Assembly: GCA_025999395.1 (NCBI GenBank)
Contig: AP024682.1
Location: 301,638-365,637 of the forward strand
Origin: Candidatus Parcubacteria bacterium
GTDB lineage: Bacteria > Patescibacteriota > Minisyncoccia > UBA6257 > JAGOQP01
Reading direction: 5' to 3'
Length of the DNA: 64,000 bases
The translations under genes were made by a program, and so were the position numbers. Under the pieces are notes generated by a model. It was given only the letters and a program-made list of their open reading frames with translations, was not told where the DNA came from and did not search any database. Of the stretch, positions 9,674-63,049 are shown in pieces. Each line of letters begins with the position of its first letter. Within the stretch, counting starts at the first letter, position 1.

Positions 9674-9723
9674 TTTATTTTTTAAATTTAGATTTTTTAA
9701 AAAAGTTTTAAAAGGATAGGAAG

Positions 9724-9794
9724 AGCGAGTGAGGGGAATCGAACCCCCGCCTGTTCCTTGGGAAGGAACTGTTCTACCACTAAACTACACTCGC
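9724..9794 (-). tRNA. tRNA-Gly (anticodon CCC)
   Basis: A manual cloverleaf works on the minus strand. Acceptor GCGAGTG/CACTCGC, D-stem GTTT/GAAC, anticodon stem GTTCC/GGAAC with loop TTCCCAA, and T-loop TTCGATT. No encoded CCA. Confidence 0.8.
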
Positions 9795-11543: not shown

Positions 11544-11554
11544 TTTAAAAGGTA

Positions 11555-11915
11555 GAGATAAGCGGGTAGTTGCTCTAATCCTTTTGGATTAGAGAGGAAA
11601 GTCCGGACACCCTACCTTGATTTTTCAAGGTACAAACGCCTCCGCTAACAGCGGACCGCCGAAAGGCGAGAGGTGCGAACAGAGACGTCGAAAACAGCAA
11701 TGTTTTCGACATCCAAAGATTTTTCTTTGGATGAGTCCTGATGGTAACATCAGGGGTGAAACGGCTAAATCCTGGCGGGGTGCAAGACCGTGCCTTTTCT
11801 GCAGTTTTTGCAGAAAAGGAGAGTCGCTTGAGCCTGAGAGCAATCGATGGCCCAGATAAATAACTACCACTCTGATTTTTTCAGAGTACAGAATCCGGCT
11901 TACAGCTTATCTCTA
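11555..11915 (+). ncRNA. rnpB: RNase P RNA (bacterial type)
   Basis: Contains the universally conserved GAGGAAAGTCCGGAC (P4 5' strand) and ACAGAATCCGGCTTA (P4 3' strand). A P1 helix closes the molecule (agagataagc at the 5' end pairs with gcttatctct at the 3' end). Confidence 0.9.
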
Positions 11916-11978
11916 CTTTTTTTATTTTTAAAAGTTGTTTGTTGGTGATTTTTGCTTTATAGTGTATTTTAGAAAAAT

Positions 11979-17871: not shown

Positions 17872-17972
17872 ATACCTTTTGGTTATTAGTTGCCATTAGC
17901 TGCTGGCTATCAATTGAATAACTTAAAAAATTACTCTTTGTGTTTGTGGAAGGTAGAAAATGTACTAATTAG

Positions 17973-18043
17973 CTGCGGGGCTAGGATTCGAACCTAGATA
18001 CCAGCGTCCAGAGCGCTGTGTCCTACCATTAGACGACCCCGCA
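17973..18043 (-). tRNA. tRNA-Gln (anticodon CUG)
   Basis: Acceptor UGCGGGG/CCCCGCA with a U1-A72 pair and G73 discriminator, as in bacterial tRNA-Gln. Anticodon stem CAGCG/CGCTG with loop CTCTGGA. T-arm CTAGG-TTCGAAT-CCTAG. Confidence 0.8.
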
Positions 18044-52087: not shown

Positions 52088-52361
52088 ATGAGGTATTTTC
52101 GTTTATTTTCTTAAAAGTGAAAGTACTGGAAGATTTTACATAGGATGTACGCGGGATATTGATAAAAGATTGAGATATCATAATAGTGGTAAAAATAAAT
52201 CAACCAAACCATACAGGCCTTGGAAGTTAATCTACTTTGAGAGTTATGATAGTATAAAAGATGCTTATAGGAGAGAGTGGTATTTAAAACATTCTAAGGG
52301 GTATTTAGAAAAAAAGGTTTATAATAAAAAAATATGGAGGAGGGTTCGCATAGTGGTCTAG
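52088..52361 (+). CDS. GIY-YIG nuclease family protein (YhbQ-like), interrupted by a +1 frameshift in a T-run
   Basis: ATG at 52088 reads MRYF, then shifts at tattttcg. The continuation reads VYFLKSESTGRFYIGCTRDIDKRLRYHNSGK...RPWKLIYFESY, the classic GIY...YIG...R...N pattern. The 3' end runs into the tRNA-Ser 5' end. Confidence 0.55.
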
Positions 52362-52428
52362 TGCGCGGCTCTGGAGAAGCCGTAGGTCCGAAAGGGCCTC
52401 GTGGGTTCGAATCCCACCCCCTCCGCCA
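52336..52428 (+). tRNA. tRNA-Ser (anticodon GGA), class II with a long variable arm
   Basis: Anticodon stem CGGCT/AGCCG with loop CTGGAGA. Variable arm TAGGTCCGAAAGGGCCTCG. T-arm GTGGG-TTCGAAT-CCCAC. 3' GCCA is encoded. There is one A-C mismatch in the acceptor stem as drawn, so the exact 5' end is uncertain. Confidence 0.7.
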
Positions 52429-55944: not shown

Positions 55945-57537
55945 TCAGGGCGAGGCGGGCGGAAGGGGGGTTCGGGGGGAATTCCGCCCGCCGAGCCAAT
56001 CGGTCGCGAAATCGGTTCGGATTTTTTCAAATGCACACCGCCAATATTCAATTTCAGAGTTTTTGAAGGTTCTTGCCTCGCCCTCGCTTCGCTCGGGCTC
56101 GGCAAAAGCAACGATTTTATACGGATTTTTGAAATCAAAAAACAATTTCTGCCCGCTCAAAAGAAAGTTCGAACCAATCTTTTTTAGAAAATCCCGGCTT
56201 TGCTCAGGATTTTCTTGCAAAGTGACAATTTCGGCTTGTTTTACGGAGTTTATGAATTTGGCGGCGAGTTCGAACCGATTATTGCCTTTTTGCTCAAAAG
56301 CCTTCAGTTTGTCTTTCAAAAGTTGTTTTTGATTGACGAGTTTGTTTTTGGCCTCTCTGTATTCATCCAAAGACAAAGCGTTTTCAAGATAAGCGTTCAT
56401 CAGCTTGTCTAACTTTTCGTCAATTGCTTTTATTTCGTTTTCTATCTTTTGAGCAAAAAAGCACGATGATTGGGCTTTTTGTTCTTTTTCTTTTTCAAGT
56501 TCTTTTATCATCCAATCAGCCCAATCATCGGGCAAAGAAACTTTTTGAATCTCCTTTTTGATTTGCTCGGCGATTATTTCTTCGCGAACATATCTTTGAG
56601 AACAAGGGATTTTCCTTTTGGTGCAACGCAAATAATTGTGTCCTTTCTGTGTCTCGGTGGTGATAAAGCAACCGCATTTTCCGCAACGGAACATTCCTCT
56701 GTAAATGTATGGCTTTAATTCTCTTGTCTTTGGTTTGCTTTTTTGTCTCATCACTTCCTGAACTTGGTCAAAAAGTTTCTTTGCGATAATCGGTTCGTGC
56801 TTTCCTTCGTAATATTCGCCGTTGTATCTCATCACTCCGTAGTAAAAAGGATTTTGAAGAAGGTATTGATAATTTGAAACAGAAAGTAATTTACCTTTTC
56901 TTCCTCTCAATCCCAGATTGTTGACAATCTTTCGGATCTCTTTAAGAGCGTATTTGCCGGTGGCGTAAAGCTTAAAGGCTTTTTTGATAAGAGGAGCTTT
57001 TTCTTTGTCTATATAGATTTGTTTTGTCTTGGGGTCGTTGAAGTAGCCAAGAGGCGCCATTTGAGGCCATAGACCTTGTTTTAGTTTTTGGCGATGTCCC
57101 CGCTTTATATTTTCCGAAAGATTGTCAATATAGTATTTTGACTGCCCAAAAGCGATAGACAACATAAACTTTCCTTGAGGCGTGTTTTCAAACCAAAAAG
57201 TCGGGAATTTTAGCTCTTTGATTACTCCGGTATCAACAAGGTAAATTATTTGTCCGCCGTCAACAGAATTACGAGCGAGACGGTCAGGATGCCAAGCCAA
57301 AATCCCTTCTGCTTCGCCCGCTTCAATTCTCTTTAGCATTTCTGCAAAAACAGGTCTTCCCGGCTTCTTGGCAGTTTGTTTTTCAACGAGAACATCAACG
57401 ATTTCCAGATTTTCTTTTTTCGCTAATTCTTTGAGTTCCGCTATTTGGTCCTGAATACTCCTTACTTGCCGATCTTCTGAATCGGTTGATTTTCGGGCGT
57501 AGATGAAAAATTTTCTTGTTTTGTTGTCTTTTTTCAT
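55945..57537 (-). CDS. Large serine recombinase (resolvase domain, recombinase domain, zinc ribbon and coiled coil)
   Basis: The probable start is MKKDNKTRKFFIYARKSTDSEDRQ, with the catalytic Ser in the YARKST motif. Has WHPDRLARN and the zinc ribbon CGKCGC...GHNYLRCTKRKIPC. The ORF track extends the N-terminus to 57609 and the C-terminus into the flanking repeat. The true C-terminus probably lies before about 56190. Confidence 0.8.
   Translation of the reverse strand: MKKDNKTRKFFIYARKSTDSEDRQVRSIQDQIAELKELAKKENLEIVDVLVEKQTAKKPGRPVFAEMLKRIEAGEAEGILAWHPDRLARNSVDGGQIIYLVDTGVIKELKFPTFWFENTPQGKFMLSIAFGQSKYYIDNLSENIKRGHRQKLKQGLWPQMAPLGYFNDPKTKQIYIDKEKAPLIKKAFKLYATGKYALKEIRKIVNNLGLRGRKGKLLSVSNYQYLLQNPFYYGVMRYNGEYYEGKHEPIIAKKLFDQVQEVMRQKSKPKTRELKPYIYRGMFRCGKCGCFITTETQKGHNYLRCTKRKIPCSQRYVREEIIAEQIKKEIQKVSLPDDWADWMIKELEKEKEQKAQSSCFFAQKIENEIKAIDEKLDKLMNAYLENALSLDEYREAKNKLVNQKQLLKDKLKAFEQKGNNRFELAAKFINSVKQAEIVTLQENPEQSRDFLKKIGSNFLLSGQKLFFDFKNPYKIVAFAEPERSEGEARTFKNSEIEYWRCAFEKIRTDFATDWLGGRNSPRTPLPPASP
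56032..56190. repeat. Imperfect terminal inverted repeat, left, of the recombinase element
   Basis: Matches the reverse complement of 57596-57808 over about 125 bp (caccgccaatattcaatttcagagtttttgaaggttcttgcctcgccctcgcttcgctcgggctcggca...). Both inner ends read accaatcttttttag. Confidence 0.6.
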
Positions 57538-57595
57538 AATCGCTTTTGGACAGTTAGTCCCGCTTCGCGGGACAAATTGCCGCTTTGCGTTCCGC

Positions 57596-57808
57596 CAAAG
57601 GCGGAACAAAAAAGATTGGTTAACCCCGCCCTTTTAACAGGAAGGGCGGGGTGTTCGCCTTCGGCGAACCGAACCTCCAAATTCTGGAGCAAAAATTGTT
57701 TTTTGATTTCAAAAATCCCTATAAAATCGTGGTTTCTGCCGAGCCCGAGCGAAGCGAGGGCGAGGCAAGAACCTTCAAAAACTCTGAAATTGAATATTGG
57801 CGGTGTCT
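57596..57808. repeat. Imperfect terminal inverted repeat, right, of the recombinase element
   Basis: See the partner at 56032-56190. It carries an extra insertion of about 50 bp with two GC-rich hairpins. Confidence 0.6.
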
Positions 57809-58090
57809 TTTGGACAAAATTCGAACCTATTTTGAACAAAATCCTGATGCCGACTTCTGATTGTCGCCCTGCGGGCGACAATCCCGCCCCGCGTTTCCGC
57901 ACGGCGTCCGCTTCGTTTCCGCCGAACAAAACAGAAAAATTTTCTAAACATTTATTTAATCGCGCCCCCGACAAAATTTTTTCTATTAAGGAAAAGAAAA
58001 TTTTTCTGTTTTGACATTCTACTAACGCAGAATTGCGGAAACGCTTCCCACCCCCAGTCCCGCTTCGCGGGACAGCAGGCGGGCTATGGT
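57799..58090. repeat. Perfect 292-bp inverted repeat, left copy, flanking the RM/HEPN cassette
   Basis: The reverse complement is identical to 62758-63049 as read by eye over the full length. It contains the hairpins gattgtcgccctgcgggcgacaatc and gtcccgcttcgcgggac. Confidence 0.85.
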
Positions 58091-58161
58091 ATTTTTTATA
58101 TTCGCCCTTGCCCCACCCGTACCGTGCGCGGGCGGTAGAGTAAAACTCCCTAAAAATAATC

Positions 58162-58195
58162 ATAACCTATTTTGGGATATTCTACAATAGGTTAT
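58162..58195 (+). promoter_or_regulatory. C-box-like operator upstream of the controller gene
   Basis: 10-bp inverted repeat ataacctatt / aataggttat with a 14-nt spacer. It ends 18 nt before the C gene ATG. Confidence 0.4.
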
Positions 58196-58212
58196 ACCAT
58201 AAAAATAAAGAT

Positions 58213-58434
58213 ATGCCAAAGTCAATTTATACAAAAGAGTATAAGAAGATCCTCGCACGGCTTAAAAAAGCCAGGCAGGATGCTGGCTTAAAACAGACAG
58301 AGGTCGCCAAAAAGTTAAATAGGCCTCAGTCTTATATTTCAAAAATAGAAAGAGGAGAAAGAAGAATTGATGTAGCAGAACTAAAAGAGTTAGCAAAGAT
58401 TTATAAAAAAGACATAAATTATTTTATTGAATAA
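58213..58434 (+). CDS. Controller (C) protein-like XRE HTH regulator of the RM system
   Basis: 73 aa with HTH LKQTEVAKKLNRPQSYISKIERGERR. Lies 17 nt upstream of the putative endonuclease gene, the classic C-R arrangement. Confidence 0.7.
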   Translation: MPKSIYTKEYKKILARLKKARQDAGLKQTEVAKKLNRPQSYISKIERGERRIDVAELKELAKIYKKDINYFIE

Positions 58435-58451
58435 AAATTAAATCACACAAT

Positions 58452-59426
58452 ATGGGTAAGTATGAAAGAGAACAAATCGAAGAGGCTGAGAAAATAATTG
58501 TTAAGATTATTAATTCTCAGAAGGTGTCCGATTTAGATAAACAAAATCGGTGGTTTAAACATGCGATCGCTATTGCTGAAAGAATTAAAAAGGATTTTCC
58601 CAATATTAAAAAAGCACAACATTTAGGTAATCGTTATGATAATACGGGAGATATATTATTAATTACCTCTGATAAAAGAGAAATTTTTATTGAAGTTAAA
58701 ATGAGCGACACAAGATTAGGTGTGGGGACTAAAGCAAATGTCAGTCAAGATGCGCTTACAGAAAATTATCTTTTTGTGGGCAAAGTTAAAAGTTGGAGTA
58801 AATTTCGCAAGGAGAAAAAACATAATGAGTGGGTTGATAGTTATTTAGACCTTTTTACTAGATATCCAAAAAAGATTTTAAATATCTCAAATTCCATAAT
58901 TAGAAGAGAGGAGAAAGCAAGGTATTTAAGAGGTTTAAAACAAAAAGGAAGTAGAAAAGCCAAAGAAATTCTCGATAAAATTCACGAGAGAGATAAAAAA
59001 GAAAAAATAGAATATTTGGTTTATCTTAGCAAACAACCGCAAAGAGAAGAAATGATTAAAAGATTTTTTATTTTAATTACATTAGGTATCCATAAAAAAG
59101 AAGAATTACAGGCTCTAATAAAAAAAGATAATTTTTTTCAAGAAATTCAAGATCTTTTGGTGTATTATGGGAATTCTTACAATGATAAAATTATTGTAAG
59201 GCAAGAAAACGCAGGTGAGAAAATTAAAAAAGTTCTCGAAGAGTTTTCAGGTTTTAAAATTATCTTTCCTTCCGGAACTACCCACTGTAAATTAGTAGGA
59301 ATAAAGGGAAAGAAAAATATACCTTTATTACAAATAGTTTTACATTGGAAAAATATTGCTCAAGGAATTAAAACTCCGTGCCTTAATATTTTTGATCTAA
59401 CTCCAAAATTTATTAATCCTTATTAA
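58452..59426 (+). CDS. Putative type II restriction endonuclease (PD-(D/E)xK)
   Basis: GDILLITSDKREIFIEVK gives a D...E-x-K catalytic core. It is convergent with the MTase gene, overlapping it by 4 bp. Confidence 0.5.
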   Translation: MGKYEREQIEEAEKIIVKIINSQKVSDLDKQNRWFKHAIAIAERIKKDFPNIKKAQHLGNRYDNTGDILLITSDKREIFIEVKMSDTRLGVGTKANVSQDALTENYLFVGKVKSWSKFRKEKKHNEWVDSYLDLFTRYPKKILNISNSIIRREEKARYLRGLKQKGSRKAKEILDKIHERDKKEKIEYLVYLSKQPQREEMIKRFFILITLGIHKKEELQALIKKDNFFQEIQDLLVYYGNSYNDKIIVRQENAGEKIKKVLEEFSGFKIIFPSGTTHCKLVGIKGKKNIPLLQIVLHWKNIAQGIKTPCLNIFDLTPKFINPY

Positions 59427-61066
59427 TTTGGGTCAATTGGGAATAATTTCTCTAGCTCAGTTTTAGAGATCTGCGTATTTCCTGTAATACTTCTTACCAC
59501 TTTCAATTTCTCTTCCGAGGAAAGCTGTTTAGCAATATCCTTAAGAGTTAAGTTTGTTTTTGGTAAATTTTTTCCGAAATCCATCTTAAGTTGTTCCTGT
59601 TTAGAGGGAGGAAAAATAACATTGACATGGTTTTCAGCAATAAACTTCATTCCCGAAGGGATAACAGCTGCTTTTAGTGTCGCTGTTTTCACTGAACCTG
59701 TGATTCTATTTACAACAATAGCAGGGCCAATATCAAAATCTTTTCTTTTTACATATTGAGGTTTTGTTTTATCTATAATTGGAAATTTTAGTCCTGTTGG
59801 AGTTATATTATGGGCCCATATTAAAGGGATTCCTTCTTCCGGGTTGTTTGTCAATAAATGCTTATTTTGGTTCCAGACTAATCTGCCAGTTTTTACCTCA
59901 TATCCGAGATCATATAGTGTTAATTTATTTTCGAAGGCTTTTTCTAGAAATTTTGGATTTTCGCTAAATATTAAAATTCCATTTTTTTTGAATAAATAGT
60001 TTCCCTTGTTTCTACCTTTTTTAAGGATAATTAGCATTGTTGATTGTAGCGCCCCGTGGAATATTTTAGGGTCATCTAGAATATGTAAATATTCAATATT
60101 GGAATTCTCTACAATAAATTTTCTTAGTTTTAAAAAGTATGCTCCGTTATTCATAGAAGGGGGAACAACATAAGCTAAATATCCTCCTTCTTTTAACCAT
60201 TTTAATCCCTGACAAATGAACAGGCTAAATATGTTTAATCTACCGTTTATAATACTCCCGAATTTTTTTCTTATATTTTCTGGAGGAGTAAATTCAAAAT
60301 AAGGCGGATTACCAATTACAAAGTCATATTTACCATAATCTTCGTTTAAAAGAGCATCTAGCTGTTTGAGTTTTGCTTCAGGAACTACTTCTTTAGCGAT
60401 CTTTACTAGTTTTTTGTCTATATCCCATCCATAAAGTTGAGGGTTTTTGAAATATTTTTTTGCTGTGATTAAAAATTCTCCTGTTCCACAAGCAGGATCT
60501 AGTATTTTTGGGTTTTTAATGTTGGTTGGTAATTTACTAAGGAGTGCTTCTCTTATTGATCTTGGGGTAAAATATTGCCCTAAAGATTTTCTATATTCTA
60601 TATCTGTTTCTTCCATATACCTAATTGTAGCCTCGGTGAATTCCTCTTTTTCTTTTATTTTTTCTTTTAACTCGCCAAAACTTCTAATTACACTTATTAC
60701 TTTTCCTTGAATTATTAATTCTTTTGTAAAAATCGGTTTTATTTTTGGATTTGCTGGTTGAAGCCGGAAACCATTTTTTTCTCTATAAATCTTTTTGAGT
60801 GTAACTTCATTATCATTTATTAGAGCCACTACCGTTTCTCCATTTTCAGCAATTGGTTGTTTCCTAATTATTACGATATCTCCATCGTAAATTCCTTCGT
60901 CAATCATGCTATCTCCTTGAACCCTTAAAGCGTAATGTTCGCCTGATTTAGATAATTGTGATTTGGGAACCTCAATCATTTCAGGATCTTCTATTGCTTC
61001 AATTGGTTGACCAGCAGCAATAGTGCCAAGTAGTGGAATTTCTACTGTCTCTTTCTTTTCTCCCAC
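59423..61066 (-). CDS. Fusion protein: LexA-like S24 autopeptidase domain plus N6-adenine DNA methyltransferase (gamma-class, TaqI/Eco57I-like)
   Basis: The N-terminal 130 aa read IPLLGTIAAGQP (the Ala-Gly cleavage site), GDSM (Ser nucleophile) and VTLKK (Lys). The C-terminal MTase has QYFTPRSI, ILDPACGTGEFL (motif I) and GNPPYF (motif IV). Confidence 0.8.
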   Translation of the reverse strand: MGEKKETVEIPLLGTIAAGQPIEAIEDPEMIEVPKSQLSKSGEHYALRVQGDSMIDEGIYDGDIVIIRKQPIAENGETVVALINDNEVTLKKIYREKNGFRLQPANPKIKPIFTKELIIQGKVISVIRSFGELKEKIKEKEEFTEATIRYMEETDIEYRKSLGQYFTPRSIREALLSKLPTNIKNPKILDPACGTGEFLITAKKYFKNPQLYGWDIDKKLVKIAKEVVPEAKLKQLDALLNEDYGKYDFVIGNPPYFEFTPPENIRKKFGSIINGRLNIFSLFICQGLKWLKEGGYLAYVVPPSMNNGAYFLKLRKFIVENSNIEYLHILDDPKIFHGALQSTMLIILKKGRNKGNYLFKKNGILIFSENPKFLEKAFENKLTLYDLGYEVKTGRLVWNQNKHLLTNNPEEGIPLIWAHNITPTGLKFPIIDKTKPQYVKRKDFDIGPAIVVNRITGSVKTATLKAAVIPSGMKFIAENHVNVIFPPSKQEQLKMDFGKNLPKTNLTLKDIAKQLSSEEKLKVVRSITGNTQISKTELEKLFPIDPN

Positions 61067-61070
61067 TATT

Positions 61071-61265
61071 TCAATAGACCTGGGTTCGTTTTTTTTCTCT
61101 TTTGATATATCCTTCTTTTTCGAGTCTTAAGAGATGATGATGAATAGTGGATACTGAAGAAAGTCGAAAATGTTTTTTAATTTCTTCTATAGAGGGAGCG
61201 TAACCTCTTTTTTCTTTGAAGGACTTTATAAAATCTAAGACTTGTTTTTGCCGTTTTGTAATCAT
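61071..61265 (-). CDS. LexA-type winged-helix DNA-binding domain, upstream segment of the same LexA-MTase gene, separated by an A8-run frameshift
   Basis: ITKRQKQVLDFIKSFKEKRGYAPSIEEIKKHFRLSSVSTIHHHLLRLEKEGYIKR is the canonical LexA N-domain. Removing one A from the A8 run at about 61085-61092 fuses it in frame with IEIVGEKKETVEIPLLG. Confidence 0.75.
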   Translation of the reverse strand: MITKRQKQVLDFIKSFKEKRGYAPSIEEIKKHFRLSSVSTIHHHLLRLEKEGYIKREKKRTQVY

Positions 61266-61269
61266 AGTA

Positions 61270-61330
61270 TTGACTTTCTATTTATTTTCGATTATACTTT
61301 AAATATAAACAAGACATCTAAAAAAGTCAA
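61270..61330. promoter_or_regulatory. Divergent promoters with a near-palindromic candidate operator
   Basis: Plus strand: TTGACT, 17 nt, TATACT, leading toward the 61357 gene. Minus strand: TTGACT (61330-25), 17 nt, TATATT, leading toward the LexA-MTase gene. A 15-bp near-palindrome TATAcTTTAAAtATA overlaps both -10 elements. Confidence 0.4.
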
Positions 61331-61356
61331 TCAGTCTAATTAATTTATACCCAACC

Positions 61357-61656
61357 ATGGCTACATCAAAACACGATGAAATTGCAAAAAAACTTGCCAA
61401 AAAATTCGGCACAGAATATAAATCTAATGAGGGCATAGATATTGTACTGCCTGATCGCGTTATAGAAGTTGAGACTAAAAAAGACGGAATACGCCAAGGT
61501 ATAAATCAAGTGATAAGATCGTCTAAAGCCAGATATATAGCTGTTAACAAAAAGAATGTACAAAATGCTCTTGACGCCACACAAGGCACCGGAATTGGAG
61601 TAATGAGTGAAACGGGCCATATTATAAAACGCGCCAGCAGAAGCAGGAAGAAGTAA
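61357..61656 (+). CDS. Small PD-(D/E)xK-like (YraN/UPF0102-like) putative endonuclease
   Basis: 99 aa. GIDIVLPDRVIEVETKK fits D-x(n)-E-V-E-x-K. Confidence 0.35.
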   Translation: MATSKHDEIAKKLAKKFGTEYKSNEGIDIVLPDRVIEVETKKDGIRQGINQVIRSSKARYIAVNKKNVQNALDATQGTGIGVMSETGHIIKRASRSRKK

Positions 61657-61681
61657 AAATAAAAGATTTCTAGAAAGTTAT

Positions 61682-62356
61682 ATGGAGGAGATACTTACAA
61701 AAATTAAACAACTAATAGAAGGATTTAGGGATAAATATACAATCAGATTAGAAGAAATTGTTGTTAATGCTGATAAGTTAAAGAAAGCCTGCAGAAGAAT
61801 TGAGCGCTCTTGGAGCGGTTCGTTTGCTGGTTGGCATGGCCGTATGTACTTTCGTGATTTTCAGATTCCATCAATACATGAAAGATTTAGTGGAGAATGG
61901 GGAGGAATACATGGCATACCTGAAGGATGGGAAGAAAAACAGCCTGAAGAAGTACGAGAAAAAATTGAAGAATTAGTTGGTGATGAATTTTCAGCTGATG
62001 ATTTTGAAAAAGAATTAGGGAAGTTAAAAAAAGAGGCAATCCAGCTTAAAGACGAAATAGTAATAACTCTTTCGGTCTTTAATTTTGACACCCACGCTGA
62101 AAAAGAAAAAGAATTATTTTCTCAAATAGAAAATTTTGAATTTGGCAAAACAAAGGGTGAATTTATAAACGATGGGTTGCCAAAAACAATGATGTCAAGA
62201 GATACGGAAGCCTTGCGGCAAGGAATTTGTATCGCTTCGTGGTTGTATTATGAAGGAGTAGCACTTGAAGCTAAGAGTTTTTATGAGGCGATAAATAATT
62301 TTTTCGGATTGGTTAATAAATTAGTAAGGCTACTTGAACAAAAAATCAAAACTTAA
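61682..62356 (+). CDS. Hypothetical protein, likely partner of the downstream HEPN protein
   Basis: 224 aa with no recognisable motif. It overlaps the next ORF by 23 nt, which suggests translational coupling. Confidence 0.35.
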   Translation: MEEILTKIKQLIEGFRDKYTIRLEEIVVNADKLKKACRRIERSWSGSFAGWHGRMYFRDFQIPSIHERFSGEWGGIHGIPEGWEEKQPEEVREKIEELVGDEFSADDFEKELGKLKKEAIQLKDEIVITLSVFNFDTHAEKEKELFSQIENFEFGKTKGEFINDGLPKTMMSRDTEALRQGICIASWLYYEGVALEAKSFYEAINNFFGLVNKLVRLLEQKIKT

Positions 62357-62753
62357 TACTAAAACAATCCATACCATAGATAATCAGTTAAATAATTTGC
62401 ACCAAGAAATATATAATAAATGTTTTGACTTGTATCAAAAGGGGGCATACGCGGAGGCAGTTGAAAAGAGTTTTAAGGTTGTACGAGATAGATTAAGAAA
62501 ATTGACAGGGTATGAGACAGGTTCAGAGGCATTTGGTAAGGGAAAATTACATATTAAGGGTGCTGCTGCTCAAAATGTTGACCAAGATTTTAATGACGCG
62601 GTTAAGTTCTTAACCATGGCAATTGATCGATTCCGCAATGAAAAAAGCCATACCTCAGATGCTAAAATAGATGACCCTGTCCGTGCTTATGAATATTTAA
62701 GACTAAGTAGTCTTGCGATGAATTTACTTGAAGATAGTGAGATTTTGTCGTAG
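62334..62753 (+). CDS. HEPN-like domain protein (TIGR02391-like), putative RNase toxin/abortive-infection component
   Basis: 139 aa. Has RNEKSH (the R-x4-H HEPN motif) near the C-terminus within a predicted helical bundle. Confidence 0.5.
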   Translation: MNKKSKLNTKTIHTIDNQLNNLHQEIYNKCFDLYQKGAYAEAVEKSFKVVRDRLRKLTGYETGSEAFGKGKLHIKGAAAQNVDQDFNDAVKFLTMAIDRFRNEKSHTSDAKIDDPVRAYEYLRLSSLAMNLLEDSEILS

Positions 62754-62757
62754 GCTT

Positions 62758-63049
62758 TACCATAGCCCGCCTGCTGTCCCGCGAAGCGGGACTGGGGGTG
62801 GGAAGCGTTTCCGCAATTCTGCGTTAGTAGAATGTCAAAACAGAAAAATTTTCTTTTCCTTAATAGAAAAAATTTTGTCGGGGGCGCGATTAAATAAATG
62901 TTTAGAAAATTTTTCTGTTTTGTTCGGCGGAAACGAAGCGGACGCCGTGCGGAAACGCGGGGCGGGATTGTCGCCCGCAGGGCGACAATCAGAAGTCGGC
63001 ATCAGGATTTTGTTCAAAATAGGTTCGAATTTTGTCCAAAAGACACCGC
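62758..63049. repeat. Perfect 292-bp inverted repeat, right copy
   Basis: Reverse complement of 57799-58090. Confidence 0.85.

Follow-up and report, generated by a model that had tools for sequence, protein, structure and literature searches.

A LexA repressor module fused to a type II DNA methyltransferase, a recurrent architecture in Patescibacteria

In the textbook view, restriction-modification (RM) systems are controlled either by a controller (C) protein or by a helix-turn-helix (HTH) domain fused to the methyltransferase, and the SOS response is controlled by LexA. Type I RM systems undergo restriction alleviation after DNA damage, in which ClpXP degrades HsdR, and CapH/CapP are damage-induced regulators of defence. 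Several methyltransferases use an N-terminal HTH to repress the promoter from which they are expressed; M.SsoII, M.Ecl18kI, M.EcoRII, M.MspI and M.ScrFIA all carry a DNA-binding domain at the N-terminus, the operators of such enzymes overlap or abut the promoter of the methyltransferase (M) gene, and Ecl18kI also has face-to-face intergenic promoters (PMC3874152). Here we analyse a related arrangement in a stretch of 64,000 nucleotides from Candidatus Parcubacteria bacterium (assembly GCA_025999395.1, contig AP024682.1, positions 301,638 to 365,637), referred to below as the window. Its gene lexA::M encodes a complete LexA, with winged HTH and S24 peptidase, and, C-terminal to it, a gamma-class N6-adenine DNA methyltransferase. 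The parts of the gene are as follows (aa, amino acids; ORF, open reading frame).

59423..61265, minus strand: lexA::M gene, LexA winged HTH and S24, then gamma-class N6-adenine DNA methyltransferase; repaired product of 613 aa
61265..61071, minus strand: LexA DNA-binding-domain ORF, 64 aa as assembled (Pfam LexA_DNA_bind, E=3.9e-20, aa 2-60)
61089..61096, minus strand: A8 homopolymer (T8 on the plus strand) that breaks the frame; A7 in the nearest relative
61066..59423, minus strand: S24-methyltransferase ORF, 547 aa
60695..61036, minus strand: peptidase S24 domain (Pfam Peptidase_S24, E=7.3e-31, aa 11-124, full length of the model)
61010-61015, minus strand: Ala-Gly cleavage site (TIAAGQP) of the S24 domain
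60905-60916, minus strand: Ser nucleophile (GDSM) of the S24 domain
60791-60802, minus strand: general-base Lys (TLKK) of the S24 domain
59915..60595, minus strand: methyltransferase catalytic domain (Pfam N6_Mtase, E=9.6e-19, and Eco57I, E=1.8e-18, aa 158-384)
60563-60580, minus strand: methyltransferase motif X, GQYFTP
60473-60499, minus strand: methyltransferase motif I, DPACGTGEF, for S-adenosylmethionine (AdoMet)
60299-60313, minus strand: methyltransferase motif IV, GNPPY
59426-59914, minus strand: presumed target-recognition domain, the C-terminal remainder of the methyltransferase

A first-pass annotation, made from the letters and their ORFs, had read the gene as a LexA DNA-binding domain, a complete S24 module and a gamma-class methyltransferase, and the profile matches listed above bear out all three, with TIAAGQP, GDSM and TLKK as well as GQYFTP, DPACGTGEF and GNPPY in place. 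The top PDB match of the S24 part is the LexA of T. maritima (3k2z, E=1.7e-24), the closest PDB entries to the methyltransferase part are M.BseCI (E=5.2e-11) and M.TaqI (E=1.5e-9), and in PADLOC this part matches MTase_II (E=5.5e-52). The N-terminal 196 aa of an in-frame relative, P0002 (95% identical), score 204 bits against the NCBIfam lexA equivalog TIGR00498, whose cutoff is 111, and the alignment spans positions 4-202 of the 203 in the model. At the level of sequence the protein has the features of both of its parent families. It shows the winged HTH, the S24 domain with a Ser-Lys dyad and an Ala-Gly site, and the predicted operator in its own promoter that are expected of LexA, together with the order X (GQYFTP), I (DPxxGxG), IV (NPPY) and C-terminal target-recognition region that defines the gamma class. 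It departs, on the same basis, from the usual architecture of each family. Canonical LexA, such as that of E. coli or T. maritima (3K2Z), shares with the fusion the domain order and the Ala84-Gly85, Ser119 and Lys156/157 numbering; however, it consists of two domains in about 200 aa, whereas the fusion of 613 aa has some 410 further residues, which are the methyltransferase, and is tightly paired with an endonuclease gene.

Is this fusion a peculiarity of one contig? The family was searched for in 5.8 billion protein clusters, and the best 120 cluster representatives were examined. One of them is the window's own 547-aa product (KatS3mg098_337, Candidatus Parcubacteria, on a contig of 561,860 bp), and each of the other 119, from Patescibacteria assemblies in JGI, ENA, NCBI and Logan, is a single ORF of 601-639 aa, 71-95% identical to it, with LexA_DNA_bind, Peptidase_S24 and N6_Mtase in one chain. 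Judged from these alignments, the fusion is a real conserved family and neither a chance event nor an artefact of a single contig, and the earlier proposal that an S24 module and a methyltransferase are joined here finds agreement in the profiles and in the single ORFs of the relatives alike. Ala84-Gly85, Ser119, Lys157, GQYFTP, the glycines of the AdoMet motif and NPPY are invariant or nearly so in the 120-sequence alignment, and the cleavage and catalytic residues of S24 are also invariant in alignments of 40 and 21 sequences. The annotation of these proteins varies. The NCBI pipeline calls them 'transcriptional repressor LexA', because the N-terminus passes the lexA equivalog cutoff, JGI uses 'adenine-specific DNA-methyltransferase', and elsewhere they are hypothetical; these are proteins of about 600 aa, and the fusion matters for their annotation too. 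A phage origin was rejected, because the fusion protein had no relatives among the viral contigs scanned.

In the window the gene is split, as assembled, by a single A in the A8 run. Deletion of one A restores a 613-aa protein with the linker ...YIKREKNEPRSIEIVGEKK..., in accord with the family consensus NQPRxIE, and the repaired inter-domain linker reads REKNEPRSIEI. The closest relative (locus L001; 95% identical in protein and about 91% in DNA) has A7 at this place, which is the sole indel across the coding region, and at L148 the run is interrupted. These comparisons, together with the single ORF of each of the 119 best relatives, uphold both points made from the sequence at first, namely that one extra A breaks the frame and that its removal yields a continuous linker. 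Since the A run is not conserved, it is not a programmed frameshift site, and this explanation was ruled out. The extra A is either a homopolymer error of high-fidelity (HiFi) sequencing and metaFlye assembly or a recent mutation, not a designed feature. The Katase hot-spring metagenome was assembled with metaFlye from PacBio HiFi reads with no short-read polishing (PMC9671151), so that a residual homopolymer error is plausible if, as the protein name KatS3mg098 suggests, the contig belongs to that dataset. The window holds 32 homopolymers of at least 8 nt, and yet no other obviously split gene was seen by eye on the ORF map, so that a real mutation may also account for the break.

The same LexA module is found on methyltransferases of unrelated classes. 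An HMMER scan, run exhaustively over 1.84 billion representatives, shows LexA modules that share 54-76% identity with that of the window joined to C-terminal parts of very different lengths, which Pfam assigns to gamma N6_Mtase/Eco57I with TaqI_C or M_Eco57I_C, to beta N6_N4_Mtase, to alpha D12 (Dam-like) and to C5 DNA_methylase. In addition, a census was made of GTDB species representatives queried with an alignment of the LexA module, with the best 80 loci retained and a bias toward fused queries. Among these loci, nearly all Patescibacteria matches run at least 275 aa past S24, whereas all matches from other phyla stop at about 200 aa and are unfused. All 21 complete fused proteins among them contain LexA_DNA_bind and Peptidase_S24, with N6_N4_Mtase in 13, C5 DNA_methylase in 6 and D12 in 4 (some match two), and the Ala-Gly, Ser and Lys residues are invariant across these 21 distant fusions despite an overall identity of only 26-60%. 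The fusion that the first-pass annotation had recommended seeking in related genomes is therefore present there both as a conserved family and on three other methyltransferase classes. Endonucleases of at least eight families, as identified by Pfam, abut the fusions (BsaWI, MvaI/BcnI, Bsp6I, NgoFVII-C, TaqI, AlwI, MutH-like and HNH), at a spacing of -8 to +9 nt for most and up to 23 nt, and mostly in convergent orientation.

The LexA module of the window is 72% identical to modules on beta-class fusions and just 44-53% identical to those of L120, L129 and L130, fusions with M parts that share 63% identity with its own. In a neighbour-joining tree of LexA modules, which carries no support values, the methyltransferase classes and some unfused genes are intermixed; we therefore relied on the pairwise identities. 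Because kinship of the LexA modules does not track methyltransferase class, the LexA and M-R modules have separate histories, and either the fusion happened many times or cassettes were exchanged at lexA. The attachment of the same LexA module to unrelated methyltransferases makes it appear that the linkage of LexA to M is itself what selection favours, rather than an accident. Canonical LexA of 203 aa is also common in other Patescibacteria, the best 120 relatives of the L016 LexA all measuring 191-235 aa. At L006 (4001-5380) a gap of 19 nt separates an unfused Parcubacteria lexA from the gene after it, which encodes an endonuclease of the DpnI family, a methyl-directed type IIM enzyme; in this pair LexA is tied to restriction although no methyltransferase is called for.

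The genes that face lexA::M in the window point to a type II RM system.

58166..58191, plus strand: putative C-box CCTATT-N14-AATAGG, an inverted repeat 5' of the C gene, conserved at five loci in an alignment
58213..58434, plus strand: C protein, 73 aa (Pfam HTH_3, E=2.4e-15), 17 nt 5' of the R gene
58452..59426, plus strand: putative cognate type II restriction endonuclease (R), 324 aa, convergent with lexA::M, the stop codons overlapping by 4 nt

Searches with the sequence of the 324-aa protein against Pfam, PADLOC, NCBIfam and PDB all gave no match, and identification by sequence was abandoned; the protein was identified by its predicted fold alone. Roughly 200 homologues are detectable, every one an unannotated protein of Patescibacteria. 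The AlphaFold2 model, built with 41 homologues, is confident (predicted local distance difference test, pLDDT, 87.5; predicted template modelling score, pTM, 0.85), and the putative fold in this model is that of a restriction endonuclease like R.HinP1I or R.MspI. In the family alignment D67...E81-x-K83 is invariant, which is the PD-(D/E)XK signature. The 324-aa ORF is also the sole neighbour that accompanies the fusion gene across unrelated contexts (L001-L004 and many of L085-L144), and at L089, L102, L103, L118 and L138 the same M family (at least 69% identical) is accompanied instead by different ORFs, of about 300 aa. The C protein has weak matches to Control_protein in PADLOC and is present at L001, L088, L125 and L148 as well, and most relatives have none. 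At L125 the C, R and M proteins are 65%, 66% and 76% identical to those of the window, and M is unfused, with an N-terminus that aligns with the linker of the fusion. It follows that LexA joined a C-R-M system that already existed. With a convergent ORF of endonuclease fold that overlaps its stop codon, and a C protein and C-box upstream of R, the reading of lexA::M as the modification enzyme of an RM system, made at first from the sequence, is supported, and the system is of type II.

Several palindromes are scarce in the window. ACGT occurs 7 times where 37 are expected (a ratio of 0.19), and the ratios for CTAG, TGCA, GTAC and GATC are 0.42, 0.48, 0.59 and 0.60; TCGA is at expectation. Such avoidance probably reflects the RM systems of this genome. 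An attempt to read the recognition sequence from the strong avoidance of ACGT, and not of TCGA, ended with no assignment, because the genome probably holds several RM systems.

The start of lexA::M lies beside a predicted LexA operator and two promoters.

61274..61294, plus strand: predicted tandem direct-repeat LexA operator CTTTCTATTTATTTTCGATTA with a period of 11 nt, 9-29 nt 5' of the lexA::M start; position weight matrix score 23.1
61302..61330, minus strand: sigma-70-like promoter TTGACT-17-TATATT for lexA::M, with the operator just downstream
61270..61298, plus strand: sigma-70-like promoter TTGACT-17-TATACT with the operator in its spacer, pointing to a 99-aa ORF (61357-61656)

Recognition of direct repeats by LexA evolved in several lineages, a point for which PMC7739468 cites a study of Patescibacteria. 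Upstream of fused and unfused lexA genes of Patescibacteria alike we found a common element, not a palindrome but the direct repeat CTTTCGGT-N4-TTTCGGT with a period of 11 nt and the variants TTTCGAT and TTTCTAT, which normally fills the 17-nt spacer between hexamers resembling -35 and -10 elements. Operators of the same type precede the unfused lexA genes of L016, L021 and L030, which have it in their own promoter as the fusion does. A weight matrix was built from sites upstream of lexA; about 28 of the 68 genes on which it was tested were in the training set, from which the metagenome loci L085 onward were excluded. Across the 64-kb window it gives one strong site, the operator listed above (23.1 bits), and the next, at 13.3 bits, is intragenic. 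Of the 68 lexA-type genes, 56 have a site of at least 13 bits in the 130 nt before them, whereas 2.1% of 130-nt windows drawn at random from these loci contain one. When 594 kb of Patescibacteria loci are scanned, all sites of at least 17 bits precede lexA-type genes save one, which precedes an R gene at L110 (5724-5744, 23.2 bits, about 120 nt 5' of the gene), where the operator of lexA::M itself is degenerate. The coupling of modification to the SOS signal suggested by the first-pass annotation we still infer; the invariant cleavage and catalytic residues and this Patescibacteria-type operator at the promoter lend it support.

The two promoters listed, each with 10 of 12 positions matching, are the two best promoter-like matches in 58050-61700, and they lie face to face. 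At most loci the operator sits in the -35/-10 spacer, and in the window it lies just 3' of the best promoter match. L148 and L149, from other samples and with an 89% identical protein, share the operator and promoter layout of the window, L118 is similar, and L001 has the usual direct operator orientation. A promoter inversion peculiar to the window, of a 45-bp segment between 9-nt inverted repeats (61269-61277 and 61323-61331), which would have cut the gene off from its promoter, was considered and rejected, because L148/L149 have the same layout and a sense promoter, TTGACT-17-TATATT, exists. The plus-strand promoter may place the ORFs of 99 aa, 224 aa and Hypoth_Ymh (61357-62753) under LexA control. 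Two further elements were seen near lexA promoters. A nonamer like a DnaA box (TTATCCACA or TGTGGATAA, at most one mismatch) occurs just 5' of the -35 of lexA or lexA::M at 54 of 68 loci, as counted 5' of the genes at L001-L054 and L085-L148 (L024, L049 and L148 are examples), compared with 4.8% of random 130-nt windows; the window's own copy of lexA::M has none. AAGTCAA stands 5-10 nt before the lexA start at several loci (for example 61269-61277 in the window, L001, L014 and L054), and as the reverse complement of the TTGACTT edge of the -35 and operator it may be an antisense promoter or a translation signal.

What could a cleavable repressor do on a modification enzyme? The explanation we favour, to which we give a little better than an even chance, is that a type II methyltransferase with a full-length LexA at its N-terminus represses its own gene, and that cleavage triggered by activated RecA (RecA*) raises methylation during DNA damage. 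It starts from observations, namely the architecture, the conserved residues, an operator located at the promoter, an RM setting and the recurrence of the fusion; the steps themselves would be as follows. LexA::M would dimerise through S24 and bind the operator beside its own promoter, fixing the level of methyltransferase synthesis in the manner of the HTH of M.SsoII-type enzymes. Single-stranded DNA would generate RecA*; the trigger could be cuts that the partner endonuclease makes where methylation is insufficient, or repair synthesis or recombination that creates unmethylated sites. RecA* would then stimulate self-cleavage at Ala84-Gly85, the DNA-binding domain would be freed and repression lifted. 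More methyltransferase would be made, and the stronger transcription of lexA::M may run into the convergent R gene. On balance, damage would raise M relative to R, and the outcome would be a type II counterpart of restriction alleviation. Such a mechanism is reasonable, because type II RM activity that is out of balance induces the SOS response and HTH-methyltransferases autoregulate (PMC3874152).

Several points weigh against this explanation. As assembled, the DNA-binding domain of the window is out of frame, and a genuine break would mean that the circuit is interrupted at this locus. The operator of the window is inverted relative to lexA::M, as it is at L148 (1100-1200) and L118 (2700-2790), and 12 of the 68 loci have no clear operator. 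The R gene is not generally under a LexA operator, L110 being the only case among about 60 loci. Conserved catalytic residues, as seen in alignments, would be no proof of RecA-dependent cleavage, and the regulatory logic would be altered if the cell has a second LexA acting at the operator of lexA::M. The AlphaFold2 model of the full-length fusion is moderate (pLDDT 74, pTM 0.59), part of S24 is poor, and the model is uninformative about the arrangement of the domains.

Other explanations deserve consideration. If the frameshift is real in this organism, by mutation or by homopolymer slippage in the sense of phase variation, a separate 64-aa domain and an S24-methyltransferase without the DNA-binding domain would be made, the latter by re-initiation at a GTG start that lies 4 nt beyond the TGA of the upstream 64-aa ORF. 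Homopolymer switches are common among RM genes, the R gene is intact, so that a functional methyltransferase is required, and the 32 long homopolymers have left no other gene visibly split. Nevertheless, all 119 other best representatives are in frame, residual homopolymer indels do occur in unpolished HiFi/metaFlye assemblies, and the slippery tract is not conserved, being A7 at L001 and interrupted at L148; on balance we think a real frameshift rather improbable, though it is to be taken seriously. Somewhat less probable still, and partly overlapping with the explanation we favour, is that the fusion is the only LexA of the cell and that RM cassettes lodge selfishly in frame at the 3' end of lexA, where their expression is guaranteed and their loss endangers lexA, with methylation not regulated by damage in any meaningful way. 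This would fit the equivalog score of the N-terminal 196 aa, the operator shared with the unfused lexA of L016, L021 and L030, and the kinship of LexA modules irrespective of methyltransferase class or M family, which is expected of a resident gene with swapped cassettes. No second LexA gene and no further SOS boxes were found within the 64-kb window, no assembly is listed twice among the best 80 census loci, and the matches outside Patescibacteria there are all unfused. On the other hand, the DNA inspected is 64 kb of a 562-kb genome, the census is limited to its best 80 loci with the bias mentioned, nearly identical fusions sit amid differing flanking genes, as a mobile cassette would, and the abundance of the canonical 203-aa LexA in other Patescibacteria means that the fusion is not obligatory.

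The invariant cleavage site and catalytic dyad could also be given an opposite meaning, in which LexA makes the methyltransferase a damage-labile antitoxin. Cleavage would expose degrons, the N-terminal fragment ending in ...IAA, the S24-methyltransferase would be degraded, and heavy damage or phage infection would favour the endonuclease and lead to suicide resembling abortive infection. There are analogies with toxin-antitoxin (TA) systems, with post-segregational killing by RM systems and with SOS-linked toxins (PMC3874152), and at L110 the strong LexA operator before the R gene would let damage induce R. However, L110 is one case among about 60 loci, cleavage would derepress the promoter as well, so that fresh enzyme is made, and methylation already in place lasts until replication; we hold this antitoxin role to be quite unlikely. 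The reverse simplification, that the LexA module is nothing other than a DNA-binding and dimerisation autoregulator like that of M.SsoII, with vestigial self-cleavage and no link to damage, has in its favour the location of the operator at the promoter and the precedent of methyltransferases with an N-terminal HTH autorepressor (PMC3874152). Yet the Ala-Gly, Ser and Lys residues are invariant in 120 close relatives and 21 distant fusions, unlike what a vestigial protease would show, and a plain HTH would do for autoregulation, an option whose availability is demonstrated by the C protein at the same locus. We consider a vestigial protease the least probable of these alternatives, and very improbable in itself.

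Compared with the M.SsoII type, the architecture and the operator position of lexA::M appear to fit, with a different DNA-binding family and with S24 intervening. The regulator here is an entire LexA, winged HTH and S24 with an intact cleavage site, which makes it potentially responsive to a signal; LexA fusions use the host type of SOS box and span gamma N6-adenine, beta N6/N4, Dam-like alpha and C5 methyltransferases. The face-to-face promoters recall those of Ecl18kI. With RM systems under C-protein control the window shares the C protein, the C-box and the R gene downstream of them, whereas its M gene is additionally under predicted LexA-type control and most relatives dispense with the C protein. 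The outcome proposed is the same shift to modification, at a time when damage leaves unmodified sites, as in type I restriction alleviation, and the route would be transcriptional, by way of a cleavable repressor on M. In SOS-regulated TA modules (tisB/istR, symE, dinJ-yafQ, yafNO), LexA or the damage signal likewise drives a toxin/antitoxin-like or defence module; there, and in CapH/CapP, the regulator is a separate protein, whereas lexA::M puts the repressor into the same polypeptide as the antitoxin-like enzyme. The searchable literature yielded no account of a LexA-methyltransferase fusion that occurs in nature, though Sanchez-Osuna et al. 2017 (Environ Microbiol) may mention one. Non-canonical LexA proteins are the subject of a 2021 paper by the group behind the Patescibacteria SOS study, and that paper does not mention such a fusion.

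A cleavage-competent LexA and a modification enzyme in one polypeptide would directly link control of the SOS response to control of RM, and the recurrence of this union on four methyltransferase classes and beside at least eight endonuclease families suggests that such a link is general in Patescibacteria. These bacteria have tiny genomes with few regulators, and CRISPR is rare in them. They probably depend on RM for defence, so that lexA::M is possibly of special relevance there, and it bears on how bacteria escape self-restriction during DNA repair. It is also conceivable, although we are doubtful, that in many Patescibacteria (Parcubacteria and relatives) the master repressor of the SOS response is itself a LexA-methyltransferase fusion, with restriction, modification and damage response in one circuit. 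If so, lexA would be a docking site for the in-frame fusion of type II RM cassettes of any class, endonuclease breaks and unmethylated repair DNA would act back on the modification enzyme by way of RecA*, and the level of the global SOS repressor would be tied to the resident RM system.

The cassette lies in an apparent genomic island downstream of a tRNA gene.

52339-52428: tRNA-Ser, upstream of the apparent island
55945-57609: intact large serine recombinase, flanked by an inverted repeat of its own (144 nt, 92%)
61357-62356: ORFs of 99 aa and 224 aa with no family match, inside the inverted-repeat segment
62334-62753: Hypoth_Ymh/TIGR02391 protein, 139 aa, inside the inverted-repeat segment

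After the tRNA-Ser, at about 52.5-54.2 kb, there are degenerate recombinase-like fragments. A perfect inverted repeat of 292 nt, with arms at 57800-58091 and 62758-63049, encloses a segment of 4,666 nt (58092-62757) with C, R, lexA::M and three small ORFs, adjacent to the intact recombinase, which segment could be invertible or mobile or could be an effect of the assembly. At L001 (3547-4856) recombinase remnants lie beside the same RM cassette; together with the recombinases of the window, this suggests that the cassette travels with a serine-recombinase island or sits in one. The 99-aa ORF contains a stretch like D...ExK (IDIV...EVETK). Elsewhere, Rfam and ARAGORN scans show an ordinary chromosomal context.

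9723-9794: tRNA-Gly
11554-11918: RNase P RNA, class A
17972-18043: tRNA-Gln

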